Assembly: GCA_963762255.1 (NCBI GenBank)
Contig: CAVXKA010000001.1
Location: 512,001-576,000, forward strand
Source of the DNA: Candidatus Eiseniibacteriota bacterium
GTDB lineage: Bacteria > Eisenbacteria > RBG-16-71-46 > JABDJR01
Reading direction: 5' to 3'
Length of the DNA stretch: 64,000 nucleotides
The notes beneath the pieces were generated by a model, which worked only from the letters and a program-made list of their open reading frames with translations, was not told the origin of the DNA and did no database searches. The translations under genes and the position numbers were made by a program. This document shows positions 21,849 to 43,744 of this stretch, one piece after another (the stretch's first letter is position 1; each line of letters starts with the position of its first letter).

Positions 21849-22943
21849 CTATTTTTGCGGGAAATGTCGGAATCCGAGGGGGGGCAGCGACGCCCACCCC
21901 CCTGCGTGCGGGACAAAAATCCCCGCTCGACCCTCGGCGACTTCTCCGATCTCGGTAATCGGGATTCCAGCCAGCCGCCCCTTGTCGCGGGCCCGCTTCG
22001 CGGCGCGGGGAGGCAGCGTGAAGAGAAGTTCGTAATCCTCGCCGCCGCGCAGGCACGCCACGACCGCGTGCTCGCCCAGGGCGTGGGCCAGGGCCTCGAA
22101 CCGGGGCCGGATCGGCAGGCGGTCGGGGTCGATGTTGAACCGCGCTCCCGACTCGGCGAGGTGGCCGAGATCGACGGAGAGGCCGTCCGAGAGGTCGATG
22201 AGGCTGGTGGGCCGGAGCGCGCGCAGTGCGAGCGCGAGTCGAACGCGCGGCTCGGGGAGAAGGAAGCGCCGAAGCGCCGCCGCGGCTTCGACGTCGCTCG
22301 TGCGCAGCTCGCGCCGCCATGCGGGTTCTCCCGCGGGCGGAGGAAACCAGGGATCGCGGGCGGTCCGCTTGCGGCCGCTCGGGGCGGCCGGGAGCACTGC
22401 CGAGAGGAGGCGAAGCCCAAGATAGGCCAGACCCGGGCGCCCGGAGACGAACACCCGGTCGCCGGGACGCGCCCCTGTCCGAAGCAGCGGTTTCCCGCTC
22501 GGGAAGCCGCCGAGCAGAAAAACCGTGACGGAGATGCGTTCGCCGCGCGCCAGGTTCCCGCCGATCACCTGCACGCCTTCGCGGCGCGCCAGCCGGCGCA
22601 TGCCGCGATACATCCGCTCTACGGCCGAGACCGACGTCGTCGGGGGGAGGATGAGCGAGACCAGCGCGTGGGTCGGCCGGCCACCCATGGCCGCGGCGTC
22701 GGAGAGGTTGGCGGCCAGCGCCTTGTGCCCGACTTCCTCGGGGAGAAACCACGCTCGATGAAAATGCGTCCCCTCGACGAGGACATCCGTGGTGAGCAGT
22801 GCGTGAGTGCCACGCAGAGGAACGACCGCAGCGTCGTCGCCGATCCCGACGCTGTCGCGCGGGGGCGCACCGAGAACCCGGGCGATCCGACGGATAAGGC
22901 CGGTCTCACCCAGGTCAGCGACGGTGAGCTGAGGGTCGGTCAG
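21849..22943 (-). CDS. thiL: Thiamine-monophosphate kinase
   Basis: In-frame extension above the ORF-track start gives LGETGLIRRI...GIGDDAA...TTDVLVEGTHF...NLSDAAAMGG; also IDLSDGL and GGEDYELLFT; probable CTG start. Confidence 0.93.
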   Translation of the reverse strand: MTDPQLTVADLGETGLIRRIARVLGAPPRDSVGIGDDAAVVPLRGTHALLTTDVLVEGTHFHRAWFLPEEVGHKALAANLSDAAAMGGRPTHALVSLILPPTTSVSAVERMYRGMRRLARREGVQVIGGNLARGERISVTVFLLGGFPSGKPLLRTGARPGDRVFVSGRPGLAYLGLRLLSAVLPAAPSGRKRTARDPWFPPPAGEPAWRRELRTSDVEAAAALRRFLLPEPRVRLALALRALRPTSLIDLSDGLSVDLGHLAESGARFNIDPDRLPIRPRFEALAHALGEHAVVACLRGGEDYELLFTLPPRAAKRARDKGRLAGIPITEIGEVAEGRAGIFVPHAGGWASLPPLGFRHFPQK

Positions 22944-23140
22944 CGGACCAACCTGACGACGTAGCCCGCGCCCTTCTTGCTGAGCTGGACCTTCTCCTCG
23001 CGGGCCAGCCAGCCGACCCCCATCTGGACCATGGAAGGAGTCTGCTTGAGCTCCTCCTTGATGTCGTTCAGAGAGGCCTCGCCAAGCCGCTCCAGAAGAT
23101 GGTAGATATCACCGGCGACGAAACCGACCTGGTTATTCAT
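22940..23140 (-). CDS. Small winged-helix protein (DUF2582-like)
   Basis: VGFVAGDIYHLL...MGVGWLAREEKV. Confidence 0.85.
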   Translation of the reverse strand: MNNQVGFVAGDIYHLLERLGEASLNDIKEELKQTPSMVQMGVGWLAREEKVQLSKKGAGYVVRLVR

Positions 23141-23181
23141 CACGAAAACCTCCTCTTGTTGCCTTGGTTGAAATCGCAGCA

Positions 23182-23210
23182 AGCTTAGGCATTCGGGGGG
23201 ATGGGGTCAA
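23182..23210 (-). promoter_or_regulatory. Sigma70-type promoter for the wHTH-thiL unit
   Basis: TTGACC-N17-TAAGCT. Confidence 0.55.
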
Positions 23211-23330
23211 GATGAAGGGTCCATCCGACATGATGAGTCATCTATTCGGGGGGAAGAACGGTCCGATCCCCCGGAATCGACATCTGTTCTCGGGGAGAAA
23301 TGGGGCGCACAATACCTTGAGGAGGAAATC

Positions 23331-24140
23331 GTGAAGCGCCTAATCGTCACCCGCCCCGGTCGCAAGATCCGTCTCAAAGACATCCGGACCGACGACGAAC
23401 TCGGTCTCGGCAGCAAGGAAGAGGCACACGAGCTCCTGAAGGCGGACCTGGAACGCCTGGGCGAACTCCAGCATCTGCTTTACGCCGACGATCGCTTCGC
23501 CCTGATGATCGTTCTCCAGGCCATGGACACCGGGGGGAAGGACGGGACGATCCGAAACGTCATGTCCGGGTTCGACCCCGTGGGCTGTGTCGTGACGTCG
23601 TTCAAGGTTCCCACGGAGGACGAACTGGACCACGATTTTCTTTGGCGCATCCACAGGGCGGTGCCGCCTCGGGGCGTGATCGGCGTGCTCAACCGATCGC
23701 ACTACGAAGACGTGCTCGTGGTGCGCGTGCACAAGCTCGTATCCAGGGAGACTTGGAAGCTTCGCTACCGCCAGATCAATGACTTCGAGCGGATGCTCAC
23801 CGAGAACGGCGTTCCGATCCTCAAGTTCTTCCTGCATATCAGCAAGGAGGAACAGGCGCTCCGGCTCAAGGCGCGTCTAGAGGACAAGACCAAGAACTGG
23901 AAATTTTCGCCGGCGGATATCGAGGAGCGCAAGCTCTGGAAGGATTATCAGGCGGCGTTCGAGGACGCCATCAACGCGTGCACCACGAAGTGGGCGCCGT
24001 GGCACATCGTTCCCGCCGACAAGAAATGGGTGCGAGACTGCGTCGTCGCCCGCGCCCTGCTCGAAAAGCTGGAGTCGCTCGATCTCCGGTACCCGAAACC
24101 GCTCTCCAAGGCGGCACTCTCGAAGATTGTGATCGGCTAG
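23331..24140 (+). CDS. ppk2: Polyphosphate kinase 2 family (polyP:nucleotide phosphotransferase)
   Basis: QAMDTGGKDG Walker A, SFKVPT, HDFLWR, NRSHYEDVL, KFFLHISKEEQ, WKFSPADI. Confidence 0.94.
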   Translation: MKRLIVTRPGRKIRLKDIRTDDELGLGSKEEAHELLKADLERLGELQHLLYADDRFALMIVLQAMDTGGKDGTIRNVMSGFDPVGCVVTSFKVPTEDELDHDFLWRIHRAVPPRGVIGVLNRSHYEDVLVVRVHKLVSRETWKLRYRQINDFERMLTENGVPILKFFLHISKEEQALRLKARLEDKTKNWKFSPADIEERKLWKDYQAAFEDAINACTTKWAPWHIVPADKKWVRDCVVARALLEKLESLDLRYPKPLSKAALSKIVIG

Positions 24141-24158
24141 ATTCCCGGATCAGCAGGC

Positions 24159-24187
24159 TTGTAGTAACGGGCGAGGAGAAGTAGTAT
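24159..24187 (+). promoter_or_regulatory. Possible sigma70 promoter for the Omp85-kinase-NTT operon
   Basis: TTGTAG-N17-TAGTAT, followed by an AT-rich patch. Confidence 0.4.
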
Positions 24188-24309
24188 GAAGGCCTGCGGA
24201 GTTCATTAGACTTAATTCGTCAATTATCGGGCTCCGTCGCGTGGAGGATTGTGTCGCAATTGTACAAAGCACTCGCTCGCCCGCCGACGACCCCAGAAGA
24301 GACCCGACC

Positions 24310-25689
24310 ATGTCGCGCTCGATCAATTTGATTCGTTTTTGCATAGGGCCCCATGTTTCCCTCAGGGTCTCCCATCTTCTGGCTCTCCTGGCCTGCGTAA
24401 TCGCCTGTTTCTCCTCCAACGCCACCGGGGCCGACCCCCGGTTCGGTGATTCCACCTGGGTGGCCCCCGTCATGCCGATCGTGGGGGATCCCGGAAGCGC
24501 GGGCCCACGGGTGGCCGAGCCGGATCGCGAGCGCGCGTGGGAAACCGCGCTGCGTACGCCGTTCCGCGTCGTCTTCCTTCCGCTGCGCTTTCTGGCGCGT
24601 GGCATGGAGGCCGGCGTGGGTCATTTCGGAGGGAAGTTCCTCGACCCGAAGCCGAAGGAGGCGCCACGGCCGGGGCTGGCCCTCGGACCGCACGTGGACC
24701 TCAGCGGCGCGAGCGACGGACTCGGCGGGATCGGAGCGGGACCGGCCCTCACTTGGACCGGGTTCCCGACCGCGGATTCGCGGATGGTGGCGTCAGGCAC
24801 GATGTCCATCAACGATCGCCGCCGCGCACGTCTTCGTGGGGTGGTCGGAGATCGGCGCCTGGTCGGCCTTCTCCTGCGGGTCGACTACGAGTACCGGCCG
24901 GACCGAAGCTACTACGGCATCGGGAACGACGCGCGAGAGTCGGACCGTGCCTACTACCGCCTCGAGACCACGAGCGCAGAGGCAGGGTTGTTCTACGGGG
25001 CCTCGCCGCTGCGCCGCGTGCGGCTTCTGGGCGGCTACTCGGGGATTAGTCCGGGCCGCGGATACCACGGAAGCCCCCTGCTCGACGACGTGTTCACGCC
25101 GGGGAGCGTGCCCTACGACCGCGTAGCCACTCGCGTTCTCACGTACGGAATCGCCGGAGACCTGGCCACCCTCGATGACTTGGCTGTCCCGTCGCTCGGT
25201 CTTCACGGTCGTGCCGAGCTGAGGCAAGCGGCGGGCATGCGCGGAATCGACCCTGATTACACGCAGTGGCTGGTCGAGGGCCGGGCCTACGTGCCGGTGT
25301 TCGCCCACCGCCGCGTGCTCGCCCTGCGCGCCCTGTACACCGGCGTGGATCCGACCGGCAGTACGTCGGTCCTCCCCTTCTATCGTCTCCCGGTGACCGA
25401 AAACCCGTTCCGCCTCGTCGGCTATGCCTCGCAGCGCTTCCGGGACCGTCAGCTCATCCTCTGTCGCATCGAGTACCGCTGGATCATCGGGCGCAATCTG
25501 AGCGCGGTGGCCCTGTACGAACTCAGCGAGGTGGCTTTCGAAAGGCGGGCGTTCACCCTCCGGAGCATGCACTCGGCGTGGGGGGGCGGCCTCCGTCTGG
25601 GAATGAACGACGCGACGGCTGCTCGCCTCGAGTTGGGGAAGAGCGTCGAGGGGCTCCATGCCGTCCTGCGGTTCGCGAGCGACTTCTGA
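24310..25689 (+). CDS. Omp85 (BamA/TamA)-like beta-barrel outer-membrane protein without evident POTRA domains
   Basis: Signal peptide; YYGIGN; LPFY...LVGYASQRFRDR (VRGY-like loop); IEYRW; WGGGLRLG; terminal Phe. Confidence 0.8.
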   Translation: MSRSINLIRFCIGPHVSLRVSHLLALLACVIACFSSNATGADPRFGDSTWVAPVMPIVGDPGSAGPRVAEPDRERAWETALRTPFRVVFLPLRFLARGMEAGVGHFGGKFLDPKPKEAPRPGLALGPHVDLSGASDGLGGIGAGPALTWTGFPTADSRMVASGTMSINDRRRARLRGVVGDRRLVGLLLRVDYEYRPDRSYYGIGNDARESDRAYYRLETTSAEAGLFYGASPLRRVRLLGGYSGISPGRGYHGSPLLDDVFTPGSVPYDRVATRVLTYGIAGDLATLDDLAVPSLGLHGRAELRQAAGMRGIDPDYTQWLVEGRAYVPVFAHRRVLALRALYTGVDPTGSTSVLPFYRLPVTENPFRLVGYASQRFRDRQLILCRIEYRWIIGRNLSAVALYELSEVAFERRAFTLRSMHSAWGGGLRLGMNDATAARLELGKSVEGLHAVLRFASDF

Positions 25690-27353
25690 TGCGAGTTCTC
25701 TTCGTCACCCCCGTGCTCATCTTCTTCTCAGTTATTGCGACCCCCGGGGCCTCTCCGTCCCACGCCGCGGACGACTCGCCGAAGCCGGGAATCAACGACA
25801 GCACGTGGGTGGATCACGATGGCCTTCCCATTGCGCAGCCTCCCGATTGGGGGCCGACTCTCTGGGGTAGCCTGTTCCGCGAGGGAATCGTCGAGCCTCT
25901 ATCCCACATGTTCGACGTGCCCGACAAGCTGCTGAGCACCACGGAGGTTTTCGGCGCGGATCCGGAGCGCGAGGCGGTGAACGTGAACGCGTTCGACGAA
26001 GCGCCCAACTCGACTTGGTTCACGAACCGCAACCACATGCGAGCCGTGCCGGTGACCGAGTTCGAAGAGGCCCACGGCGCGCTGCGACCCACGAAACCAT
26101 GGACCATCAAGAAACCGAAGCAAGGCGGAAACACCGTGGGCTTCCAGATCAAGGATGCCGACGGTAAGAAGTGGCTCGTCAAGCTGGATCCGGCCGGTTA
26201 CCCGCAGCTCAGCTCGGGCGCGGACCTGATCACGAGTAGCCTGCTCCAGGCCGCGGGCTACAACCTCCCGCACAATCCGATCGTGAGTTTCCGGCGAAGC
26301 GATCTCAAGATCGATGAGGATCTGCTGCAAGGTAAGGAGGGGGCGCCGTTCACGGAAGCCGACCTCGATTCGCTGCTCGCATCGGGCGCGCTCCTGTCGG
26401 ACGGCAGCTACTCGGGTTTCGCCAGCCTGTTCCTCTCCGGCCACGTGCTGGGCTCTCCGAGCACACGCCGGCTTCGCCCGGGCGATACGAACGACTGGTA
26501 CTCGCACATGAACCGCCGCGAGCTTCGCGGTCTGTACGTGTTGAGTTCCTGGCTCAACAGTTGGGACACCAAGGATCTCCAGTTCCTCGACACGTTTGTC
26601 GAGACGCGAGACAGCCTGGGACACGTCGACCATTACATACTCGACGTAGGCGCGTCTCTCGGCGTGGGAGCCGAGGGGCCGAAGAAGCTGGCGAGCGGGT
26701 TCGAGCACACGATCGACTTCGAGTGGACCGCATGGCGGATCCTGAGCCTGGGCTTTGTCGTGGAACCCTGGCGCCGGGCCCGCCAAGAAACCGGCATTCC
26801 CTCGGTGGGGAACTTCGAGTCGGCGGTCTACAAACCGGCCAAGTTCAAGGCCCTGGTACAACACCCGGCGTTCCGTGAGATGACGGACCGGGACGGCTAC
26901 TGGGGAGCCAAGATCGTGGCGTCCTTTTCCAATGCCCAGATCGCAGCGGCGGTGGACGCGGTCCACTACGAGGACCCGCGTTCCGCCCCCTACCTGGTGC
27001 GATGCCTGATCGAGCGGCGCGACAAGACCGCCCGCTACTGGTTCGACCGGGTCGCCCCCTTGGACTTCTTCTCGGTGCGAGACGGGGTGCTGCGCTTCCA
27101 CGACTTGGCGGTGGACGTCGGCCTGGCGCAGCCTCGGGCCTATGAAGTGAAAGCCCGATCACCGGAAGGCGGTGTTTCGATGGGCGAGAAGGCCCGCCTG
27201 AGCGACACGGCACTACTTCTGATTGACCTCGGTAACATCGCGTCCCGCGTTTCGCTCGAGTTCTCCATCGCGGGGAACGGAGCGAAGCCGACGCGCGTGG
27301 AGCTGAGACGAGGGGGCTCTGGATGGGTGATAACTCAAGTACGGCACGGATGA
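25689..27353 (+). CDS. Exported protein with a probable atypical kinase (HipA/PI3K-like) fold
   Basis: TGATG overlap; signal peptide; KQGGNTVG, WLVKLD, WLNSWDTKDLQFLD, YILDVGASLG. Confidence 0.7.
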   Translation: MRVLFVTPVLIFFSVIATPGASPSHAADDSPKPGINDSTWVDHDGLPIAQPPDWGPTLWGSLFREGIVEPLSHMFDVPDKLLSTTEVFGADPEREAVNVNAFDEAPNSTWFTNRNHMRAVPVTEFEEAHGALRPTKPWTIKKPKQGGNTVGFQIKDADGKKWLVKLDPAGYPQLSSGADLITSSLLQAAGYNLPHNPIVSFRRSDLKIDEDLLQGKEGAPFTEADLDSLLASGALLSDGSYSGFASLFLSGHVLGSPSTRRLRPGDTNDWYSHMNRRELRGLYVLSSWLNSWDTKDLQFLDTFVETRDSLGHVDHYILDVGASLGVGAEGPKKLASGFEHTIDFEWTAWRILSLGFVVEPWRRARQETGIPSVGNFESAVYKPAKFKALVQHPAFREMTDRDGYWGAKIVASFSNAQIAAAVDAVHYEDPRSAPYLVRCLIERRDKTARYWFDRVAPLDFFSVRDGVLRFHDLAVDVGLAQPRAYEVKARSPEGGVSMGEKARLSDTALLLIDLGNIASRVSLEFSIAGNGAKPTRVELRRGGSGWVITQVRHG

Positions 27354-28994
27354 CGACACGCACGCCGGACTCTCATACCGGTCGAGGCGGAGGCAGGCGC
27401 TTTGCCTTCGCAGCCGCGATCCTTGTCGTGCTCCTCGGCTGCGGCCACATCGGGCGTCTGCAGTACGTAGCCCAGCCCGTTTCTCCGGCGTCGACGGACA
27501 GCACGGAACTGAAGGCGTTCGTGGGGCCCATGCCTTGGCATCCCGCTGTTCGGCGACACGGCGATCGGCTTGGTGCCGGGCACCGCGGACTCTTCGATTC
27601 GCTTCCTGGGACGGCTGCGCAGCGGATACGCGGCGGATACGCTGAACATCATCCTGTGCGGCGACAACCGCCCGGGCTACCGCCTTGGGCGTCTCGCGCC
27701 GCAACTCCAGACCATCCGGCAGGGGGTCTCGCTGAATCCTCTCAAGGTCCTGCGCGCTCTGGTCACCATCCCCTACGCGATCGTGAAGGGACTGTATCCC
27801 GACTTCGCGCTCATCCGCGAGATTCCACCCATGATCAAGCGCATGCCTAAGTGGGGGCGCGAGCACGAAGTCATGGAAGCGATGCTGGTGAAGATCGATT
27901 CGCTGGAGACCCACGGGCAAGACGTCGCGGCGGTGATCAATGTCGGAGACGTCGTGAAAGACGGACGGTACCCCTCTCACTGGGAGCGATTCCTACGACT
28001 CACCCACCCACTCACGTCGCGGGTGCCTTACTTCCCCGTCCCCGGGAACCACGAGCGCACCGACACCGTGGAAGGGATCGAGAACTGGTGGACCGCGACG
28101 GGCCTGCCGGTCGGCGGTGATCGTCTCTATTACTGCTTCGATTCCGCCGATGGGTGGGTTCGATTCATCGCTCTGGATTCGAACCCGATCGTGAACTCAG
28201 GGAGCCACTGGACGCGTGAGGTCCAGATCAAGTACGCCGAGGAGCAATTCACCTGGTTGGTGGAGCGGGTCAAGGAGCACCGTGGGCCGGTGCTGGCCCT
28301 GCTGCATCACCCGCCGTTTTCGGCCGGCACGCACCGCCTCGAGTGGCAGAGAGATGAGTTGCTGCTCGAACAGCGCGAGCGCATGGTGCGGGCGTTGCAC
28401 GAGTCCGGAATCGCAGCCGTCGTGAGCGGGCACGATCACTCCTACCAGCGCGCCCTGCTCACCTGGCCCGATGCCGTGCTCATCGTCCTCGTCTCGGGCG
28501 GCGCTGGATCGCCTCTGCACGACATCCCGCTGCCCGCCGAGAGCGCGCGGTTGTTCAGCGAGTACAAGGTGGCCGGCTCGGTCGTGAAGCCCGAGAACGT
28601 CTTCACCAGCCAGGTGTTCAACTTCACCCACTTGCGTCTTTGGTTCGGCGGCGGCGATTTCTATACGTATGCGGTCGACCAGAACTCGAAGACGACGCTG
28701 ATCGACAAGGTGGAGATCGATCTCAACCGGTACGGCACGCCGGAGATCGATCAGCACAAGATGGTCATCCCGCCGTCCGGAGGGCCGTCAGAACCCTCGG
28801 AGGACAAGGCAAGCACGCCGGACTCGACCACGGCCACGGCCGATTCGACCACGGCGAGCGAGCGGCTCCTCTCGAAGCCGCCGCCGAGCGGGGAGTCCGA
28901 GCAACAGGGAATCAGCCCTGACAAGCCTGACTCCGTCTCGGTCAAGCCGCAGACCCCTCAGACGCCGGTGCCGGGCACGGGGCGACCCAGATAA
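27350..28994 (+). CDS. Lipoprotein metallophosphoesterase (calcineurin-like), frameshifted near 27524
   Basis: ATGA overlap; LLGC lipobox in the first frame; GDNR, GDVV, GNHE, HHP and GHDH in the next frame; Ser/Thr/Pro-rich tail. Confidence 0.85.
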
Positions 28995-29031
28995 TGCAGC
29001 ACGTGCTTTTGCGCACGAGAACGATGGAGGA

Positions 29032-30441
29032 ATGGACATGACCACCACCGCGTCCGACCGAGGCAAAGACGCCGGGCCGCTGAGCAAGGACTCCAAGAGT
29101 CTGCTCGACCGCTTTCTGGGGATCTTCGCGGACGTGCGCGGCGGGGAGGGTGTAACTGCGCTCCTCTTGATGTTGAACATTTTCCTCCTGCTCGCGAGTT
29201 ATTACCTGCTGAAGACGATTCGTGAGCCCCTCATCCTGGCCGGGTCGGGCGGGGCGGAGATAAAGAGCTATTCCGCGGGGGTGATCGCGGGTCTCCTCCT
29301 CATCCTCGTGCCGCTCTACAGCATGCTGGCCTCACGTGTGTCGCGCGTCAAACTCATCAACGGGGTGACGCTGTTCTTCATCGCCTGCCTCGTTGCGTTC
29401 TTCTTTCTCAGCTTGAGTGGGGTTTCGATCGGCGTCGCGTTCTTCATCTGGGTCGGGATCTTCAGCATGATGATCATCGCCCAGCTCTGGGCGTTTGCTA
29501 ACGACGTGTACACCGTGGAGCAGGGAAAGCGGCTGTTCGCCATCGTGGGCTTTGGAGCGTCCCTGGGGGCCATCGCGGGGTCCTTCGTGACCGGGCAACT
29601 GGTGAAGGTGTACGGCCCCTACCCCTTCATGCTCGGCGCCGCGGGGTTGCTCGGCCTGTGCATGGTGCTCACGACTGTCATCCATTTCCGAGAGAAGCGC
29701 CGGCTCGCGGGCGCACCGCCGGCCGCCGGGGGCGGAGCGGGTGCGGACGCTGCCGTCGAGGAGACCGCCAACGTCGAGGCTCCCGTGAAGGGGCGCAGCG
29801 GCTTCGCCCTCGTTCTATCGGATCGATACTTGCTGCTCATCGGGCTCTTGATGCTTCTCGTCAACCTTGTGAATACGACCGGGGAGTACATCCTGGGAAA
29901 GACGGTCGTTGATCTCTACGCGGCAACCCATAGCGCCGGCGCTGGATCTCTCGACGAGGGAAAAGTGATCGGGGAGTTCTACGGCAACTACTTCACCGTG
30001 GTCAACGTTCTCTCGGCCCTCATCCAGGCTCTTGTTGTCTCACGCGTATTGAAGTACTTCGGCGTGAAGGTGGGGCTGCTCGTTCTGCCCGTGGTGGCGC
30101 TCATCGGCTACGGCGCCATGGCGTTCATCCCGTTGCTTCCCTTCATCCGCTCGGTGAAGCTGGCGGAGAACTCGATCGACTACTCGCTGCAGAACACCTC
30201 GCGAAACGCTCTCTATCTGCCGACGAGCCGGGAGGCGAAATACAAGGCGAAGCAAGCCAATGACACCCTCTTCGTGCGCTTCGGGGATCTCTGTTCGGCG
30301 GGGCTCGTCTTCGCCGGTGTCACATGGCTGGGATTCACGACGAAGCAGTTCGCCCTCACAAACGCCGCGCTCGTCCTCGTCTGGCTCGTCCTCGCGATCG
30401 TGATCGGCCGGCGTTTCCAGAAGCTCGCGAAGACAGCCTGA
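29032..30441 (+). CDS. NTT/TLC-family (Npt1-like) nucleotide transporter
   Basis: About 12 TM helices; YYLLKTIREPLIL, QLWAFANDVYTVEQGKRLF, DYSLQNTSRNALYLPTSREAKYKAK, RFGD. Confidence 0.88.
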   Translation: MDMTTTASDRGKDAGPLSKDSKSLLDRFLGIFADVRGGEGVTALLLMLNIFLLLASYYLLKTIREPLILAGSGGAEIKSYSAGVIAGLLLILVPLYSMLASRVSRVKLINGVTLFFIACLVAFFFLSLSGVSIGVAFFIWVGIFSMMIIAQLWAFANDVYTVEQGKRLFAIVGFGASLGAIAGSFVTGQLVKVYGPYPFMLGAAGLLGLCMVLTTVIHFREKRRLAGAPPAAGGGAGADAAVEETANVEAPVKGRSGFALVLSDRYLLLIGLLMLLVNLVNTTGEYILGKTVVDLYAATHSAGAGSLDEGKVIGEFYGNYFTVVNVLSALIQALVVSRVLKYFGVKVGLLVLPVVALIGYGAMAFIPLLPFIRSVKLAENSIDYSLQNTSRNALYLPTSREAKYKAKQANDTLFVRFGDLCSAGLVFAGVTWLGFTTKQFALTNAALVLVWLVLAIVIGRRFQKLAKTA

Positions 30442-30449
30442 GGCTATCC

Positions 30450-33170
30450 GTGACTCCGGTGCAAGTCTTCGGCCATGTCCTCCGCCGGCTCGGACTCGAG
30501 CCCGAGGAGAATAGGCTCCTGGGCCTGATGGGCGCGCTCTGCGCAACGCTCATGTGCGCCTACACGGTCGCGAAGGTCGTGCGGGATGCGCTGTTCCTGC
30601 AGGAGTTCGGCGCGCTCTCGCTCCCCTATGCCTATGTCGCCGTCGCGCTCGTGTCGGTGGCGTTCGTGTGGTTCGAGAGCCGGCTCGCCCGACGGTTGAC
30701 GCGTGTGGGCGCGACCTGGTTCAACCAGTACACCGCGATCGGGTTCAGCGTGGCCGCCGCGTTGATCCTGCCGCATGCCCGGCACTGGACGGCTGCGGTG
30801 TTCTATCTGTGGACCGGCAGTCAGGCCATGATGCTGATTCCGCATTTCTGGCTGCTGGCGCTCCATTTCTGGGATTCCCGGCGCGCGCGCCGCATCTTCC
30901 CGCTACTCGCCGGTTTCGGGCTCATCGGCGGACTCGCCGGCGGTGCGATCGCGGCCTGGTTGGCGCCGTTGGGCCTGGTCGCGCTCACGTGGATTCTGTC
31001 GGGGCTGCTCGTGGTGGCTCATGTGCTCACGCGCATCGTGAAGCCGCGCAGCACGCGCCTCGTCGCCGCCCTGGACGCATCGCCCGGCGTCTCCAGTTGG
31101 GAGATCATTCGGCGATCCCCGTACATCAAGGTCATGGTCGCCGGCCTCGCGTTGTCGGTCATCGTCGGGACCCTGGTCGATTTCCAGTTCAAGTTCTTCG
31201 CCCAGCAGCTCTACCCGGATCCACACGCCCTGACTAGATTCCTCGGCGCTTTCTACGTCGGGCTCAACGCTTTGGCGATGCTGCTCCAATTCGGCGTCGC
31301 CGGATGGCTGTTGCAGCGCTTGGGCCTGGGGACATCCATGGGATTGCAGCCGGGAACCGTGCTGTTGTTCGCGACGCTGACGGCGGTCACCAGCGGAGGA
31401 TGGGTGGTCATCGCAATGCGATGGATTCAGGGTGTCACCGCGCAGACGCTGGGAAAGTCGGCGGCCGAGATCTACTTCGCGGCGGTCCGCCCGAGCGAGC
31501 GCCGGCGCATCAAGCTCGCGATCGACACGCTGGTCGAGCGCTGGTCGGATGCGGCGGCCGGCATCGCGCTGATCGTCGTCCTGCGCGTCCTCCATGTTCC
31601 GATTATGTTCATCGGCGTCGGGACGGCCGTCCTGGCGGCAGCGTGGATCGTCGTGGTGTGGCGCCTGCACATGCGCTACGGCTCGGCCTTCGAGCAGGCC
31701 CTGAGCAGCCGCTGGATCGAGCCTGACGTGGCGCCCGAAGCGATGCGGATCCCCTCGGCGCGCAAGGCGCTGCTGCTGGCGTTGAACGACGACGATGAGC
31801 ACCGAATCGTGTTCGCGCTCAAGCTGAGCGAGAGCGCTAGCGATCCGGCCGTTGCACGCGCGGTGCGAGACTGCCTCCGGCACGCCTCACCCGGAGTGCG
31901 CACGGCGGCAATGAGAGCGATGGAGGAGACCCGCGCGCCCGACCCGGACGGCATGATCGAGGGTTTCCTGCGCGATCCCGACGAAGGCGTGCGCCGCGCC
32001 GCGGTCGGCTACCTGCTCGTCCTGAGCGAGCAACCGATCGAGTTCGCGCGCGGTCTGCTTGAGGGCGACGACCCGACGCTCCGGCAACATGTTGTAGACG
32101 AGCTGTTCGATCGCCCCTCCGAGGCGCGCGGCGTGTTGACGCCGGCGTGGGTCGATGCCCGGGTCGCGGCCGGAACGCGTGAGGATCTGCTGCTGGTCGC
32201 GCGTGCGCTCGGCGCGATGTCCTCCAACGCAGCTGCACCGCAACTGAGAACGCTATTGGATCACGAGGATACCGAGATCCAACGAGCTGCGCTGCGCTCC
32301 GCGACCCGTCGGCCAAGCCGCATCTTCGTCGACCTCCTGGTGCCCATGCTGCTGAGGCCGGAGTTGAGCCATGAGGCCCGACGGGCCCTGTCCGCGCTCG
32401 GGGATCCGGCTGTGCCCGCGCTCCGGCGGCTGCTGAGCGGCGATCAGGGCGCGCGAGCCCGGGCCATCGCCGCGCGCGCGCTCGCACAGATTGCGACCCC
32501 GCAAGCGATCATTGCACTCATGACCCTGGTACGCGGCCCCGACGTACGCCTGCGCCACCTCGGGCTCCAGAGCCTCGCGCATGCGCGGTCGCGCAACGGC
32601 CGGCCGGTAGTCCCGCGCGCCCTTGCCCACCGGCTGTTTCTGAGAGAGTTGCTCGAGTACCGCGGATGTCTCGAGCCGGCCCGTGCGCTCGAGGCGAGTT
32701 CCGTGCCCGAGCTTCGCCTACTCGCCGAGAGCTACCGCGAGTGGGCCGACATGGCCCTCGAGCGGGCCTTCGACGCCCTGGCCTGCTGGTACGAGCCCAA
32801 ACCGCTCTTCGGCGTCTTTGACCGGCTCAGGTCGATTCAGCCGGAACGCACGTCGACCGCCCTGGAGTATCTTGGACATGTGTTGCCGCGCGCGATCTTC
32901 AAACCGGTTAGCCGGATCTTCGAGAAGACTCCGGAAGACGTCGCCGTGATCGGGTCCGAAGCCGACACGCTCGCGGGTTGGATCCGCGCCGCGTGGGAAT
33001 CGGACGACGACTGGCTGCGCGCCTGTGCCGTAAGAGCCGCGCGCCACGTCCAGGGATTCGATCTCGGGCTGTTCACCGCCGCGGCTGACGACAGTCCCAT
33101 TGTTGGCGCGGAAATCGCATCACTTTCCGTGCCCACGCGCATCGGGACGATACAGGCGGTGCCATGCTGA
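30450..33170 (+). CDS. NTT-family membrane domain fused to HEAT repeats
   Basis: AYTVAKVVRDALFL, LVDFQFK, KLAIDTLVERWSD, then HEAT repeats (LRDPDEGVRRAAV, LDHEDTEIQRAAL, DDDWLRACA); GTG 30450 with GAGG. Confidence 0.85.
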   Translation: MTPVQVFGHVLRRLGLEPEENRLLGLMGALCATLMCAYTVAKVVRDALFLQEFGALSLPYAYVAVALVSVAFVWFESRLARRLTRVGATWFNQYTAIGFSVAAALILPHARHWTAAVFYLWTGSQAMMLIPHFWLLALHFWDSRRARRIFPLLAGFGLIGGLAGGAIAAWLAPLGLVALTWILSGLLVVAHVLTRIVKPRSTRLVAALDASPGVSSWEIIRRSPYIKVMVAGLALSVIVGTLVDFQFKFFAQQLYPDPHALTRFLGAFYVGLNALAMLLQFGVAGWLLQRLGLGTSMGLQPGTVLLFATLTAVTSGGWVVIAMRWIQGVTAQTLGKSAAEIYFAAVRPSERRRIKLAIDTLVERWSDAAAGIALIVVLRVLHVPIMFIGVGTAVLAAAWIVVVWRLHMRYGSAFEQALSSRWIEPDVAPEAMRIPSARKALLLALNDDDEHRIVFALKLSESASDPAVARAVRDCLRHASPGVRTAAMRAMEETRAPDPDGMIEGFLRDPDEGVRRAAVGYLLVLSEQPIEFARGLLEGDDPTLRQHVVDELFDRPSEARGVLTPAWVDARVAAGTREDLLLVARALGAMSSNAAAPQLRTLLDHEDTEIQRAALRSATRRPSRIFVDLLVPMLLRPELSHEARRALSALGDPAVPALRRLLSGDQGARARAIAARALAQIATPQAIIALMTLVRGPDVRLRHLGLQSLAHARSRNGRPVVPRALAHRLFLRELLEYRGCLEPARALEASSVPELRLLAESYREWADMALERAFDALACWYEPKPLFGVFDRLRSIQPERTSTALEYLGHVLPRAIFKPVSRIFEKTPEDVAVIGSEADTLAGWIRAAWESDDDWLRACAVRAARHVQGFDLGLFTAAADDSPIVGAEIASLSVPTRIGTIQAVPC

Positions 33171-33901
33171 GCCCGGTGGAGCGCGTGCTCATCCTCAAGG
33201 GGGCGGACCTTCTGAGGGATGTCGGGCCGCGTCACCTGCTCGGGCTGGCGGAAGTGGCCCGCGAGATCGAAATCGCGGCGGGCGACACGATCTACAACGC
33301 CGACGATCCCGCGGACGCGCTCTACCTCGTCGTGGAGGGCCGCGTGCGGCTCATGACCGACGACAAACCCCTCTCCGAAGTGGGGCCGGGCGAGGCCTTC
33401 GGGACTTGGGCGCTGGTGGACGAGTCCGAGCGCGGCCATCGCGCCGAGTGCATCGAGGACGGTCTGGCTTTGGCGCTCCACCGCGACGAGTTCTACGACG
33501 TGGCCGCCGGAGACCTGTCGCTCCTGCAAGAGGTCCTGCGGGCCCTGGCAAAGCGTCTTCGCGCCCTCGTGGCGGAGCGGCCCGAGGAGGCCCGCGTCGA
33601 AGGTGAAGGGATCGAGAAGCCGGAGGCGATGGCGGCCCCGGAGACGGCAGAGGCCGTTTCCAGCACCGTCGCCGCTGTCGACGCCGCGACGACACCGCAA
33701 GCAGTGACCCTGCCCGAGCCGGCCAACCCGCCCAACGCCGGGCCCCCGGACACCGTGGACGCACCTGACGCGCCCGCGCCCGACGCCGCAGCGCCCACGC
33801 CCGGCGCGGAGCCGCCCGCGCCCGGGGCCGGGGCGACGCTTGCGGCCGCCGCGCTGGGAAAGACGCCTCCTGAGCCACCTGATGCCTTACCATCATCATG
33901 A
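33164..33901 (+). CDS. Cyclic-nucleotide-binding domain protein with Pro/Ala-rich tail
   Basis: ERVLILK, AGDTIYNADDPADALYLVVEGRV, GPGEAFG; overlaps the upstream stop. Confidence 0.85.
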   Translation: MLSPVERVLILKGADLLRDVGPRHLLGLAEVAREIEIAAGDTIYNADDPADALYLVVEGRVRLMTDDKPLSEVGPGEAFGTWALVDESERGHRAECIEDGLALALHRDEFYDVAAGDLSLLQEVLRALAKRLRALVAERPEEARVEGEGIEKPEAMAAPETAEAVSSTVAAVDAATTPQAVTLPEPANPPNAGPPDTVDAPDAPAPDAAAPTPGAEPPAPGAGATLAAAALGKTPPEPPDALPSS

Positions 33902-33930
33902 TCCGGATCGGCGAAGACGCCGCACCGAGA

Positions 33931-33939
33931 TGATAGAAT
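33931..33939 (+). promoter_or_regulatory. Extended -10 element before the CYTH-CHAD gene
   Basis: TGATAGAAT, 9 nt upstream of ATG 33949. Confidence 0.5.
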
Positions 33940-33948
33940 TGAGTAGAG

Positions 33949-35721
33949 ATGACAGCTGCGACACACGTCCCACCCGGTGACGTCGATCAACTCGAAACCG
34001 AGTGGCAGTTCACCTCCCCCGAGCTGCCCGCGGTCGAGGAGTGGCTTCGCGCGCACCCGAGCCGCCAGGGCGTGGACATCGGCGAGCCCGACACGCGCCT
34101 CCTTCGGGACGTCTACTACGACACCGAGGACCACCGGATCCACCGCGCGGGCTTCACCCTGCGCATCCGCGCGGTCGGGGACCGCAACGAGGCCACACTC
34201 AAGGCGCTGGCCCCGGCTTCAGACGGCCTGCGTGTCCGCCGAGAGATCACGCATCCCCTCACCGAGGACGACCCACGCGATCTCTTCGTGAGCCAGAGCC
34301 CGGTGGGGATGCGTCTGCGCCGCTTGTGCCGAGTGACCGAGCTGAGGCCGATCGCCGAGATCCATACGGAGCGGCGCACGTTTCCGCTGCTCGCGGGAGG
34401 AGAGCCGAAGGGCTCGCTTGCGCTGGACCGCAGCGCGCTCACCGACGCCTCGGGGCGCGTCCACCATCTGCAACGGGTGGAGGTAGAGGCCGCCGGCACG
34501 GCTACCGACGCGCTTGTCCCCTTCGTCGAAAAGTTCCGTCAGAGCGAACGGTTGGCCCCCGCAGAGGAGTCCAAGGTCGAATGGGCGCTGCGCACGCTCG
34601 GCCTCAACACGGACTGGATGCTCGATCTCGGCCCGACCAAGGTGGAGCCGACGATGAGCGTGGGCGAGGTCGCATTCGCCGTGCTGCGCAAGCAGCTCGG
34701 CGCGTTCCTCCGCCACGAGCCGGGAACCCGGCTGGGTGACGATCCCGAACATCTCCATGACATGCGGGTGGCCGCGCGCCGGATGCGCGCCGCGCTGCGC
34801 GTCTTCGAGGACGTGCTTCCGCCGAACCCGACGGTTCGCTATCTCGCGGGCCTGCACGAGGTGGGGCAGGTGCTCGGGCGAGTCCGCGATCTCGACGTGC
34901 AGATCGAGCAGATCCGAAATCGCCGGAGGCTGCTCGTCGCGGCCGGCCCCTCGGATCTCGATCCCCTGCTCCAGCGACTCTCCGACAAACGCGAGCTCGC
35001 CCGCGAAGACATGATCGCGACTCTCAGTTCCGCACACTATCGCCGTCTGGTGCGCTCGCTGACCGCCTGGGTCCGCACCGGTCCCGGCCGCCGTACCGCG
35101 GCCGCGGTCCCCTCGCGCACCGCCGCTCCGCTTCTCATCCGTCGCGCCCGCCGCCGCGTGATGCGCACGGCGCGCCGCCTGGAGCCCTCATCGCCCCCGA
35201 CTGCGTACCATGAGCTGCGCATCCGCTGCAAACGGTTCCGCTACACGATGGAGTTCCTGCAACCGCTCTACGGCGCTCCGGCCGCGCGCCTCACGGAGGC
35301 ATTGGTGGACGTGCAGGATTGCCTCGGCCTCCACCAGGACGTGCAGGTGTCGATCGCGCTCATGCGACGGCTCGCCGAAGACCGCGAGGCGCCGCTCCCG
35401 GAAGGGACCGCTGTGGCGGTGGGCGAACTCACGCAACTCTGCGCGACCCAGGCCGAGGAGCTCCGAGGGCAATTCCCAAAGCTCTTCAGCCACGTCGAGG
35501 GCAAGCGCTGGCGATCGCTGCGCGGAGCGATGCTGGCCGCCACCGAGGCGCTCGCCGCAGACCTCTTCCGCCAGGCGCATCTCGACGCGGCACAGACGCA
35601 GCGAGCGCGCCTGAGCGCGCCGGCTCGCAACGTGGAGGAGGCCTCCAGCCCGAGCCCGGATCCGTGCGAGCTGAAGCCGGTCGCGCCCGTGGAGGACCCG
35701 GAGCATCCATGGAACTCGTGA
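33949..35721 (+). CDS. CYTH + CHAD domain protein (polyphosphate-binding)
   Basis: ETEWQF, DVYYDT, LRIR, VEVE; then DPEHLHDMRVAARRMRAAL, RDLDV, HELRIRCKRFRY, QDCLGLHQD. Confidence 0.9.
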   Translation: MTAATHVPPGDVDQLETEWQFTSPELPAVEEWLRAHPSRQGVDIGEPDTRLLRDVYYDTEDHRIHRAGFTLRIRAVGDRNEATLKALAPASDGLRVRREITHPLTEDDPRDLFVSQSPVGMRLRRLCRVTELRPIAEIHTERRTFPLLAGGEPKGSLALDRSALTDASGRVHHLQRVEVEAAGTATDALVPFVEKFRQSERLAPAEESKVEWALRTLGLNTDWMLDLGPTKVEPTMSVGEVAFAVLRKQLGAFLRHEPGTRLGDDPEHLHDMRVAARRMRAALRVFEDVLPPNPTVRYLAGLHEVGQVLGRVRDLDVQIEQIRNRRRLLVAAGPSDLDPLLQRLSDKRELAREDMIATLSSAHYRRLVRSLTAWVRTGPGRRTAAAVPSRTAAPLLIRRARRRVMRTARRLEPSSPPTAYHELRIRCKRFRYTMEFLQPLYGAPAARLTEALVDVQDCLGLHQDVQVSIALMRRLAEDREAPLPEGTAVAVGELTQLCATQAEELRGQFPKLFSHVEGKRWRSLRGAMLAATEALAADLFRQAHLDAAQTQRARLSAPARNVEEASSPSPDPCELKPVAPVEDPEHPWNS

Positions 35722-36212
35722 TCGTGCGCCACGCCGTGGCCTTCGACCGCGATTCCACGCGATGGCCGGACGACGACGACCGTCCGCTCAGCCCCGAGGG
35801 GATGGAGCGGTTTCGCCGGGTGGCGCGGGGTCTCGGCCGCGTCGTTCCCGAGGTGAGCGCGCTCTATGCGAGCCCCCTCGTGCGCGCCCGACAGACCGCG
35901 GAGATTTTGCAGGCCGAGGCCCACTGGCCGTCGCCGCAGCTTCTCGACGCTCTGCGCCCCGAAGAGCATCCCGAAACCCTGCTCGCAACGCTGCGCCGCG
36001 CGGGCGCGGACGAGTGCATCGCCGTGGTCGGCCACGAGCCGCATCTGCATGATCTCGTGGGGTTTCTCGCCTGCGGCCGACGGCACGGTCTGGCGGTGGA
36101 CATGAAGAAGGGTGGCGCCGCCACGATCTCCTTCACCGGCGGGGATGTCGGGCCGGGGGCCGGGCGCCTCGAGTGGCTCCTTCCCCCAAAGACGATCCTG
36201 AAGCTCCTTTAG
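35709..36212 (+). CDS. sixA: SixA-like histidine phosphatase
   Basis: MELVIVRHA, RPLSPEG, SPLVRARQTA, VGHEP, KKGG. Confidence 0.9.
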   Translation: MELVIVRHAVAFDRDSTRWPDDDDRPLSPEGMERFRRVARGLGRVVPEVSALYASPLVRARQTAEILQAEAHWPSPQLLDALRPEEHPETLLATLRRAGADECIAVVGHEPHLHDLVGFLACGRRHGLAVDMKKGGAATISFTGGDVGPGAGRLEWLLPPKTILKLL

Positions 36213-43632: not shown

Positions 43633-43744
43633 GGACTGGGGATCCTGGGTGCATCGGTGTCGAGGGGGGATGCGCGCAGGAAAGTGTACGCCCGGGGGGC
43701 AGGAAAACAAAGGGCGGGGAGGCGCCCCTCCCCGCCCTCGGAGG

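Follow-up and report, generated by a model that had tools for sequence, protein, structure and literature searches.

Six plus-strand genes (g1–g6, positions 24310..33901 of the 64,000-nucleotide stretch analysed, hereafter the window) of an uncultured bacterium, probably one of the Eisenbacteria, make up a gene set that is widely conserved yet undescribed: we found no published description of a module of barrel, kinase and carrier. The best-supported reading of the set, to which we give a probability of about 0.45, is an envelope phosphotransfer module in which an exported kinase would dock on an outer-membrane barrel and be fed by exchangers of the NTT/TLC type. The reading draws on the order of the genes and the folds of their products, on the conservation of the catalytic residues, on signals for export, and on adjacency and genome-level co-occurrence; a g1:g2 interface is also predicted. 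The sequence-only reading made earlier, in which ATP is exported to a kinase in the envelope, is partly supported.

The genes g1 (24310..25689) and g2 (25689..27353) are joined by a TGATG at 25687-25691, and g2 and g3 (27350..28994) by an ATGA at 27350-27353. A 37-nt gap (28995-29031), with GGAGGA ahead of the ATG, precedes g4 (29032..30441), and 8 nt separate g4 from g5 (30450..33170), which starts with a GTG at 30450 and overlaps g6 (33164..33901) by 7 nt (33164-33170). The sequence-only reading had listed six co-oriented genes with these junctions, and every gene, coordinate and junction was found as it gave them. It had also assigned export signals to g1, g2 and g3; each of the three proteins has one N-terminal hydrophobic segment in the window, and export signals are present in their homologues too. 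The arrangement is shared by dozens of genomes and is therefore far above chance.

On its AF2 model, g1 (459 residues, with an N-terminal signal) is a 16-stranded barrel of the Omp85 superfamily, of the BamA/TamA/Sam50 type. The model (pLDDT 84.2) has 16 strands over residues 122-457 and a helix at 76-110. A VIA fold comparison over residues ~119-459 gave a Z of 26.4 to Sam50 (309 residues aligned, r.m.s.d. of 3.1), 25.0 to the TamA barrel and 24.5 to the BamA barrel, which upholds the earlier assignment of g1 as an Omp85 barrel. The window protein scores 21.1 bits against Pfam Omp85 (PF01103), under the gathering cut-off of 24, and matches NCBIfam Omp85_fam in part (E 1.7e-11); the g2-adjacent partners at other loci pass the Pfam model (25.0-42.3 and 80.7-84.5 bits). 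No family match to a POTRA domain was found in g1 with Pfam or NCBIfam, and the modelled region ahead of the barrel consists of a low-confidence segment and one helix. Modelled in this way, with no folded periplasmic N-terminal domain, g1 fits the noNterm Omp85 subfamily (Heinz & Lithgow, 2014, PMC4104836; Leptospira paralogues, PMC11358297), which the available portions of these articles describe as 16-stranded barrels with a short periplasmic N-terminal part and of unknown function. It differs from them in its strict pairing with a gene for a kinase fold, and in a conserved segment, 59-75, that is predicted to hold g2. The Leptospira paralogues have other neighbours (e.g. DUF1566, Big-domain lipoproteins), and PMC11358297 does not use the word 'kinase'.

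As judged from sequence, g2 (554 residues) founds a large family (2388 clusters at E<=1e-3) that has no entry in Pfam, and the window protein gave no match in Pfam or NCBIfam. The AF2 model (pLDDT 65, with 182 residues under 50) points to a bilobal kinase fold in the atypical branch of the protein-kinase-like superfamily. The top Foldseek matches were Fam20C (E 2.1e-5) and PI4KII-alpha, and VIA ranked CtkA first (Z 14.0; 239 residues aligned, r.m.s.d. of 5.0), followed by Fam20C (12.8), PI4KII-beta (12.4), actin-fragmin kinase (11.6), HipA (11.3) and CotH (11.2). The VIA matches span residues ~126-456, and g2 matched atypical kinases only. Kinases are recognized by a catalytic Lys, the Asp and Asn of the catalytic loop and the Asp of the DFG motif, all of which are found at the level of the g2 family: among 41 diverse members, K165 is present in 41, D293 and D319 in 40 each, Glu or Asp179 in 35, and position 298 is Asn in 36 and Gln in four. 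The window copy carries Q298 for the metal-binding Asn, D179 for the helix-C Glu and V320 in the DFG motif.

The window g2 was not matched by the Fam20 (PF06702) or HipA (PF07804, PF20613) models; HipA_2 matched weakly in four of the 41 relatives (best E 7.4e-5). Of two g2 profiles compared with PDB sequences, neither found a kinase, A1 giving one weak match to a de novo designed protein (E 0.16) and A2 nothing. The protein appears to have, besides its signal peptide, a pair of conserved docking motifs in the N-terminal part, the kinase fold and a C-terminal β-sandwich. It has the bilobal fold and the Lys, Asp-x4-Asn, Asp-Phe-Gly signature in common with the HipA, CtkA and PI4KII kinases, but is set apart from them by the signal peptide, the docking motifs and the β-sandwich, and by having neither an antitoxin partner nor a HipA match. 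Its N-terminus is of the Sec type in Eisenbacteria, and lipoboxes are found in homologues from Gemmatimonadota and Alphaproteobacteria. The earlier claim that g2 is an exported kinase fold is borne out by the fold matches, the conserved catalytic residues and the export signal.

Modelling of the barrel and the kinase together, as had been proposed with the sequence-only reading, predicts that g2 is docked in its folded state at the periplasmic face of g1, beneath the barrel and not inside it. The ipSAE of the complex, which is the model's confidence and not a measurement, was 0.66 (0.65, 0.67 and 0.66 in the individual runs), compared with 0.00 for the best control; 58 of 80 solved complexes attain that mark, as do two of 110 mismatched pairs. 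At least 43% of the contacts agree between runs, with a partner pLDDT of 80 or more. The predicted interface joins residues 59-75 of g1 and barrel residues 334-335 and 389-401, located at periplasmic turns by a strand count on the AF2 model, to residues 33-46, 94-109 and 270-275 of g2.

With a passenger gene behind a barrel gene, the locus has the look of two-partner secretion (TpsB/TpsA, e.g. FhaC/FHA), in which an Omp85-superfamily barrel gene likewise adjoins that of its exported partner. Through the barrel, g2 could then reach the surface or other cells as an effector kinase or toxin similar to secreted CtkA or HipA-type kinases; the best structural match of g2 is indeed the secreted kinase CtkA, and the Leptospira work (PMC11358297), in its available part, discusses noNterm Omp85 proteins as possible translocases. 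This is highly improbable given that g1 has no POTRA domain and g2 no TPS-like β-helix, that the modelled complex sets folded g2 under the barrel, that g2 is 60-73% identical across Eisenbacteria, unlike fast-evolving effectors, that many of its homologues are lipoproteins, and that a search among longer proteins for a fusion of g2 to a barrel gave two matches, neither with a Pfam domain. A true two-partner system, with two POTRA domains and a TPS β-helix, was considered for g1 and g2 and rejected, g2 being modelled as a kinase fold and a β-sandwich; the barrel gene also comes first here.

From its Pfam score and motifs, g3 is a calcineurin-like metallophosphoesterase: it scores 50.8 bits against Metallophos (PF00149; gathering cut-off 21.5), and its translation shows GD, GDxxD, GNHE, a His and GHDH, in agreement with the metal-binding motifs that define these enzymes. 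It had been described from the sequence as a lipoprotein phosphoesterase. Both halves of that description hold, with a single hydrophobic segment and an LLGC lipobox, but they do not form one open frame here. The lipobox reading frame (27350 onward) and the phosphoesterase reading frame (27570-28994) differ, with the break upstream of the Metallophos domain. A frameshift of 1 base near 27539-27545 splits the gene in this assembly but not in close relatives: contigs that are ~95% identical, from three public runs (X1-X3), have one base fewer at 27539. In homologues the upstream peptide runs on in a single frame, and the two parts share a frame (derived from the coordinates) at nine of the nine loci where both were matched.

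The carrier g4 (469 residues, ~11 hydrophobic peaks) can be placed by Pfam among the TLC/NTT-like carriers of the MFS (TC 2.A.12), with 55.5 bits to TLC (PF03219; cut-off 21) over model positions 159-364 of 491 only, while its 50.4 bits to the NTP/NDP exchange transporter model TIGR00769 of NCBIfam fall below the cut-off of 387.2. Its match in the PDB is ADP,ATP carrier protein 1 (9j3n; E 3.7e-9). The product of g5 (906 residues), polytopic like g4, combines an MFS (TLC-like) carrier with C-terminal HEAT repeats (HEAT_2, 68.8 bits); the membrane half scores 17.3 bits to TLC (E 0.0022; cut-off 21), and its counterparts at loci L065 and L067 pass with 28.5 and 34 bits. The last protein, g6 (245 residues), is a putatively cytoplasmic cyclic-nucleotide-binding protein (cNMP_binding, 55.5 bits) with a Pro/Ala-rich tail and no hydrophobic segment. 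An NTT-HEAT fusion with a cyclic-nucleotide-binding gene downstream has been described as an operon-like bacterial arrangement of unknown function (Major, Embley & Williams, 2017, PMC5381601, available in part); g5 would fit this with its TLC-like carrier domain ahead of C-terminal HEAT repeats, and g6 follows it immediately. This agrees with the earlier characterization of the pair as a known unit of no settled function. The present locus differs in its partners, since an Omp85 barrel, an exported kinase and a phosphoesterase are not mentioned in the available portion of PMC5381601, and in the sub-cut-off membrane half of this copy of g5.

The conservation of these genes was assessed at the level of loci and of genomes. 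Upstream sequence of 1400 nt or more is available for g2 at 68 loci; at 62 of these the gene immediately ahead, on the same strand, is Omp85-like, and one further adjacent Omp85 (L103) was recognized by Pfam. NTT-like genes are present in 14/14 g2-positive and 2/27 g2-negative genomes of the same class, and TLC family matches in 7/8 g2-positive and 14/73 g2-negative genomes of a Gemmatimonadota sample, where one g2-positive genome (G101) has no TLC match. The Fisher p values of 3e-9 and 2e-4, respectively, are both overstated because related genomes are not independent. In four mixed families of the class the presence or absence of carrier and g2 agrees genome by genome. The dependence is one-sided, with g2 almost never found without an NTT-like gene and NTT-like genes present without g2, which fits a relation between a supplier and a user. 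The gene order recurs at L065, L067 and L084 with 22-39% identity and Pfam-confirmed Omp85, TLC and cNMP_binding; TLC and HEAT are combined in L065 and L067, and the NTT-HEAT counterpart of L084 matches HEAT_2 and MFS_1 only, with TLC unmatched. The neighbourhood survey that had been suggested for g2 thus showed strong co-occurrence.

The earlier claim that the six genes are one system stands as regards their frequent co-occurrence, but only the barrel and the kinase are invariable, and the six are not one obligate unit. Thirty loci have 6 kb or more of sequence on each side, and at 13 of them none of the phosphoesterase, NTT, NTT-HEAT and cNMP genes is nearby. These are frequent neighbours mainly in Eisenbacteria-type loci, and g3 is absent from most others. 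Most barrel–kinase pairs of Gemmatimonadota stand alone among variable, unrelated neighbours (e.g. bPH_2, Lon, OpuAC, LytB). Such isolation would suit two separate things: a structural or biogenesis pair in the outer membrane, with g2 a kinase fold working without ATP from the carriers or a pseudo-enzyme, and an NTT, NTT-HEAT and cNMP set with an unrelated role at the cytoplasmic membrane, the two being joined only through shared regulation or ancestry. A g4 orthologue (51% identical) in genome G003 has none of g1–g3 nearby, and the NTT-HEAT unit has been described by itself (PMC5381601, in its available part). We regard this separation as quite unlikely in view of the genome-level co-occurrence in two phyla, the match within the four mixed families and the conserved catalytic residues of g2. 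The adjacency also re-forms in differing orders and orientations across loci, and at least 8-9 changes in NTT-type adjacency are needed on the g2 tree.

In the window, the g1–g6 block sits within a polyphosphate gene island. A plus-strand gene for a PPK2-family polyphosphate kinase (23331..24140; Pfam PPK2, 230 bits) ends 170 nt upstream of g1; it scores 375.9 bits to TIGR03709, over the cut-off, and 318 bits to its nearest equivalog, ADP-polyphosphate phosphotransferase, under that cut-off. A plus-strand gene for a CYTH and CHAD protein (33949..35721; CHAD 208 bits, CYTH 49 bits) lies 47 nt downstream of g6, and PPX and PPK1 come next on the other strand. The membership of the two flanking genes in the module is uncertain. 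The island lends some local support to the alternative raised in the sequence-only reading, inward scavenging, in which the barrel would admit external nucleotides, polyphosphate or fragments of nucleic acid, g2 and g3 would process these in the periplasm, the NTT-like carriers would import the nucleotides and the polyphosphate enzymes would store the phosphate. To our knowledge, all characterized NTTs are nucleotide importers, into cells or plastids. Calcineurin-like nucleotidases of the periplasm are familiar, UshA and CpdB among them, and g3 shows a weak resemblance to a diphosphonucleotide phosphatase as well as to cyclic-nucleotide phosphodiesterases. We nevertheless consider scavenging to be unlikely: we know of no Omp85 barrel that acts as a solute channel, a full and conserved kinase signature would be needless for binding or hydrolysis, and most loci that are not of the Eisenbacteria type lack the phosphoesterase. 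PPK2 or other polyphosphate genes are near the module at only 2/79 other loci and at 0/13 loci from relatives, and no CYTH-CHAD gene was found beside it at any of the 79.

For the envelope phosphotransfer module, the fixed core would be the POTRA-less barrel with the exported atypical kinase on its periplasmic face. Nucleotide would be delivered to g2 across the inner membrane by g4 and by g5, the latter with a cytoplasmic HEAT domain and g6 as its partner. The exchangers would trade outgoing ATP for incoming ADP, since ATP is abundant in the cytoplasm and would be consumed by the periplasmic enzyme. The phosphoesterase may either remove the nucleotide that the reaction yields or undo the phosphorylation, and in this genome the upstream PPK2 could regenerate ATP from polyphosphate. 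We infer the kinase activity of g2 and its substrate (protein, lipid or glycan), as well as the role of g3, the substrate and direction of g4 and g5 and control by cyclic nucleotides.

A parallel is offered by Fam20C, the Golgi casein kinase with which g2 appears to share a structural lineage. This eukaryotic secretory-pathway kinase acts outside the cytosol, and an ATP/ADP exchanger of the ER/Golgi supplies its nucleotide. By analogy, both systems would have a kinase outside the cytosol that depends on a nucleotide antiporter, and a luminal nucleotide phosphatase would match g3. The carrier families differ, so that for the carriers the likeness would be functional and not homologous, g2 has no Pfam match to Fam20C, and here the compartment is a bacterial one, enclosed by an outer membrane with porins. 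Periplasmic ATP should leak through porins, which counts against the module. Also counted against it were the import direction of characterized NTTs, the partial TLC match of g4 far under TIGR00769, the sub-cut-off TLC score of g5, the 13 bare loci, the genome G101, the residue variants and pLDDT of the window g2 and the frameshift in g3.

A further extension, in which PPK2, g1–g6 and CYTH-CHAD form one polyphosphate-fuelled unit, is very doubtful. PPK2 would make ATP from stored polyphosphate and returning ADP, cNMP-gated NTT-type exchangers would ship this ATP to the periplasm, and the kinase under the Omp85 barrel would spend it on the outer membrane or cell surface. If this were true, it would amount to an ATP economy outside the cytoplasm that is able to run off a phosphate store. 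More generally, the gene set hints, short of proof, that some bacteria may send ATP to the periplasm for phosphorylation there.

The six genes of the block (g1–g6; window positions 24310–33901, forward strand) are all present and co-oriented, with the junctions described in the sequence-only reading. The genes for the Omp85 barrel (g1) and the exported kinase-fold protein (g2) are joined by TGATG at 25687, and g2 is joined to the gene for the lipoprotein phosphoesterase (g3) by ATGA at 27350. Between g3 and the TLC/NTT-like carrier gene g4 lie 37 nt, with GGAGGA ahead of the ATG at 29032; an 8-nt gap precedes the GTG of the carrier–HEAT gene g5 at 30450, and g5 overlaps the cNMP-binding gene g6 by 7 nt (33164–33170). 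The export signals claimed for the first three products were also recovered: a single hydrophobic segment lies at the N-terminus of each of g1, g2 and g3, the last of which also has an LLGC lipobox. Hydrophobicity marks g4 and g5 as polytopic, and no hydrophobic segment was found in g6 or in either flanking protein (PPK2 and CYTH-CHAD). A promoter scan of the block gave 0 promoters and nothing above shuffles, and six terminator-like sites were found against 6.9 expected from shuffles. An Rfam scan of 22500–36500 returned no riboswitch or RNA family, the sole match (CrfA) being sub-threshold (25.3 bits against 38). Relatives carry in-frame insertions of 15 nt at 24479 in g1 (public runs X2–X4) and of 18 nt at 29770 in g4 (run X1).

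The assignment of g3 as a lipoprotein phosphoesterase stands (calcineurin-like phosphoesterase, 50.8 bits), but its description as a single gene does not, as a one-base frameshift near 27539–27545 had been missed. In the window sequence g3 is split over two frames, with a lipobox ORF from 27350 and a phosphoesterase ORF at 27570–28994. Because homologues read through the junction in a single frame and the base at 27539 is absent from the contigs of relatives of approximately 95% identity (three public runs, two studies), the break is either a strain-specific mutation or an error of assembly. As the source genome (4.14 Mb, 93.6% complete) is in 3 contigs, an indel error in the consensus is possible. 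The family as such is intact.

No Pfam or NCBIfam family matches g2. Clustering at 90% gives 947 family matches, every named one of which is hypothetical, and clustering at 50% gives 2388 clusters at E ≤ 1e-3 (556 at E ≤ 1e-30). The 30 nearest Atlas clusters are all without a name; in the nearest three that were shown, Acidobacteriota and Myxococcota are the most frequent phyla, and record titles and cluster labels spread the family over Eisenbacteria, Gemmatimonadota, Acidobacteriota, Myxococcota, Alphaproteobacteria and others. The model of g2 (pLDDT 65) was matched by Foldseek to the atypical kinases Fam20C and PI4KII-alpha, and VIA-align gave Z scores of 14.0 for CtkA, 12.8 for Fam20, 12.4 for PI4KII, 11.6 for actin-fragmin kinase, 11.3 for HipA and 11.2 for CotH. 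Profile searches with g2 found no kinase among PDB sequences. The kinase signature is retained in a set of 41 diverse members, with Lys165 present in 41/41 and Asp293, Asn/Gln298 and Asp319 in 40/41 each; the subfamily of the window has Gln298, Asp179 and Val320. Homologues from Eisenbacteria begin with Sec signals, and those from Gemmatimonadota and Alphaproteobacteria have lipoboxes. The structural matches, the retained catalytic residues and these N-termini support the exported kinase fold proposed for g2. Only two longer forms were found, neither fused to Omp85 or NTT, although such an absence is weak evidence. In these relatives (P0277, 1151 aa, and P0278, 1160 aa) the C-terminus is extended by approximately 680 residues that contain no Pfam domain, and the catalytic-loop Asp position of P0278 is not Asp in a pairwise alignment.

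The barrel g1 falls just short of the Pfam Omp85 cut-off (21.1 bits against 24). Its model (pLDDT 84) is a barrel of 16 strands, with nothing but a flexible segment and a single long helix ahead of it, that superposes on the barrels of Sam50, TamA and BamA with Z scores of 24–26. As modelled, g1 is a member of the POTRA-less 'noNterm' Omp85 class of Heinz & Lithgow (2014; PMC4104836). The function of this class is still open according to a Leptospira paper (PMC11358297).

Modelling of the barrel–kinase complex, as proposed in the sequence-only reading, was carried out with mature g1 and g2, each supplied as an alignment, and three controls. The predicted complex scored 0.66 (0.65, 0.67 and 0.66 in individual runs) against 0.00 for the best control; 58 of 80 solved complexes reach the 0.66 mark compared with 2 of 110 mismatched pairs. 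At least 43% of contacts agree between runs, with a partner pLDDT of 80 or more. On g1 the confident contacts comprise the conserved N-terminal segment 59–75 and barrel residues 334–335 and 389–401, which strand counting in the g1 model would place at periplasmic turns; on g2 they comprise the conserved N-terminal motifs 33–46 and 94–109 together with residues 270–275. In this prediction, which is not a measurement, g2 sits as a folded protein beneath the barrel on its periplasmic side, an arrangement that speaks against the rival explanation of two-partner-like secretion of a kinase. We know of no complex comparable to that predicted for g1 and g2. The mature N-termini of the two proteins have a GDSTWV/DSTWV motif in common (g1 residues 46–51, 24445–24462; g2 residues 37–45, 25797–25823), which is kept in Eisenbacteria-type homologues and absent from those of Gemmatimonadota; the g2 copy falls inside the predicted interface.

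The neighbourhoods of g2 homologues were surveyed at 13 loci from class-level relatives and 79 from species-representative genomes, the latter retrieved with alignment A1 and biased towards Eisenbacteria-like and Gemmatimonadota members, with Acidobacteriota and Myxococcota hardly sampled. Of the 68 loci where the upstream sequence was long enough to judge, 62 have an Omp85-like gene immediately before g2 in the same orientation. Among the other six, L103 has an ORF with a Pfam Omp85 match at that position, and the ORFs checked upstream of g2 at L041, L085 and L092 include no Omp85; the ORF check covered these four, L037 and L102 being the other two. The 42 loci of at least 45% identity, where many contigs end early, have a phosphoesterase in 28 cases, an NTT in 23, an NTT-HEAT fusion in 25 and a cNMP gene in 25. 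Where at least 6 kb was available on both sides (12 of these loci), an NTT-type gene was found at eight, all four genes at four and none at three. At the 37 more distant loci, mostly from Gemmatimonadota, the corresponding counts are 5, 5, 7 and 4, and of the 18 that have full flanks, ten lack all four genes; neighbours at these distant loci are variable and unrelated. In the survey suggested in the sequence-only reading, the barrel–kinase pair is thus the constant core, and the phosphoesterase, carrier and cNMP genes are often found nearby chiefly at Eisenbacteria-type loci.

The placement of the NTT-HEAT and cNMP genes also varies, being divergent upstream or co-oriented downstream. The full gene order recurs at 22–39% identity in three MAGs, two of Alphaproteobacteria and one unclassified (L065, L067 and L084). 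Pfam confirmed Omp85, TLC and cNMP_binding in all three and TLC plus HEAT in L065 and L067, the L084 counterpart having HEAT_2 and MFS_1 and no TLC. On a FastTree tree of g2, NTT-type adjacency requires 9 changes, at least 8 of them forced by well-supported branches, compared with a mean of 14.1 for shuffled labels. Some genomes, and even single contigs, contain two or three barrel–kinase pairs, only one of which adjoins carriers (L031 and L034 on one contig, L026, L087 and L056).

The carrier g4 passes the Pfam TLC threshold (55.5 bits) with a match that spans just part of the model, and is far short of the NCBIfam exchanger cut-off. In g5, which combines an MFS carrier with HEAT repeats, the TLC match is sub-threshold in the window copy (17.3 bits) and above threshold in distant counterparts. 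The cNMP-binding protein g6 completes with g5 the unit of a carrier–HEAT fusion and a cNMP-binding neighbour reported without a function by Major et al. (2017; PMC5381601), in agreement with the earlier statement that this combination is known and its function unsettled.

Co-occurrence was assessed at the genome level. Among 41 class-level genomes, g2 is present in 14 and an NTT-like match in 16, the latter in 14/14 g2-positive and 2/27 g2-negative genomes (G003 and G024). In four mixed families the presence and absence of the two agree genome by genome, as compared by eye between two tables. Of 81 Gemmatimonadota genomes sampled evenly, eight have g2 and 21 have a TLC match: seven of the eight g2-positive genomes (the exception being G101) and 14 of the 73 g2-negative genomes, one of which (G098) is unpublished. 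The Fisher p values of 3e-9 (class) and 2e-4 (Gemmatimonadota) are overstated because relatives are not independent. NTT-like genes also occur without g2, so the relation is one-sided. In G003, a complete genome from the same family, a g4 orthologue of 51% identity stands by itself, with the NTT-HEAT and cNMP pair at another site (L112 and L113); neither a protein query nor a profile found a g2-family member there. This one-sided dependence fits carriers that supply and a kinase that relies on them. A rival explanation is two unrelated modules, a barrel–kinase pair and carrier genes. That many barrel–kinase pairs have no carrier gene nearby is an objection to the export of ATP to g2 proposed in the sequence-only reading.

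In the window, g1–g6 lie within a polyphosphate gene island. A PPK2-family kinase gene (23331–24140, forward strand), nearest to ADP-polyphosphate phosphotransferases, is directly upstream and co-oriented after a 170-nt gap; a CYTH-CHAD gene (33949–35721, forward strand) is directly downstream of g6, co-oriented after a 47-nt gap; and exopolyphosphatase (36209–37723) and PPK1 (37720–39867) genes follow on the reverse strand. Among the 79 other loci, PPK2 is near the module at two (L030 and L034) and CHAD, PPX and PPK1 at none, and this rarity makes the polyphosphate context a lead for the genome of the window only. When an ancestral polyphosphate locus with the module inserted was considered, the CHAD proteins of family relatives were only approximately 30% identical. 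A 488-aa ORF without a Pfam match (35268–36734, reverse strand) overlaps the exopolyphosphatase ORF by approximately 525 nt; either one start call must be wrong or the 488-aa ORF must be spurious. Beyond PPK1 lies a 1340-aa protein (39901–43923, reverse strand) with FG-GAP, ASPIC/UnbV, PPC and FlgD-Ig domains.

The best-supported reading is a refined form of the original one, a carrier-supplied envelope kinase, with its catalytic and transport steps all inferred. The kinase g2 would be tethered to the periplasmic face of the barrel g1 and would rely on NTT-type exchangers for its nucleotide, the HEAT and cNMP components would act at the cytoplasmic side, and the phosphoesterase g3 would clear the product or reverse the phosphorylation. 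Further objections to ATP export are that TLC matches are weak in the carriers of the window, that ATP in the periplasm should leak through porins and that, to our knowledge, the characterised NTTs are importers; the rival explanation here is inward scavenging of nucleotides or phosphate. A literature search found no published description of the module, although neighbours of this kind could be listed in the supplementary tables of Major et al. (2017) or of the papers on Omp85.

The common view is that the periplasm has no ATP and that processes in the envelope are powered through energy coupling from the inner membrane. The module is a dedicated and widespread gene set that combines transporters of the ATP/ADP-carrier type with an exported kinase predicted to dock on an outer-membrane barrel, and this joining of carriers and exported kinase makes the question of periplasmic ATP directly testable. 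A common functional context would result for four uncharacterised families: the noNterm Omp85 proteins, the NTT-HEAT fusions, the NTTs of free-living bacteria and the g2 kinases. If the carrier-supplied kinase reading is false, the strict barrel–kinase pairing would still define a new outer-membrane complex; if it is true, bacteria would have in this module an equivalent of the kinases of the eukaryotic secretory pathway together with their nucleotide antiporter.
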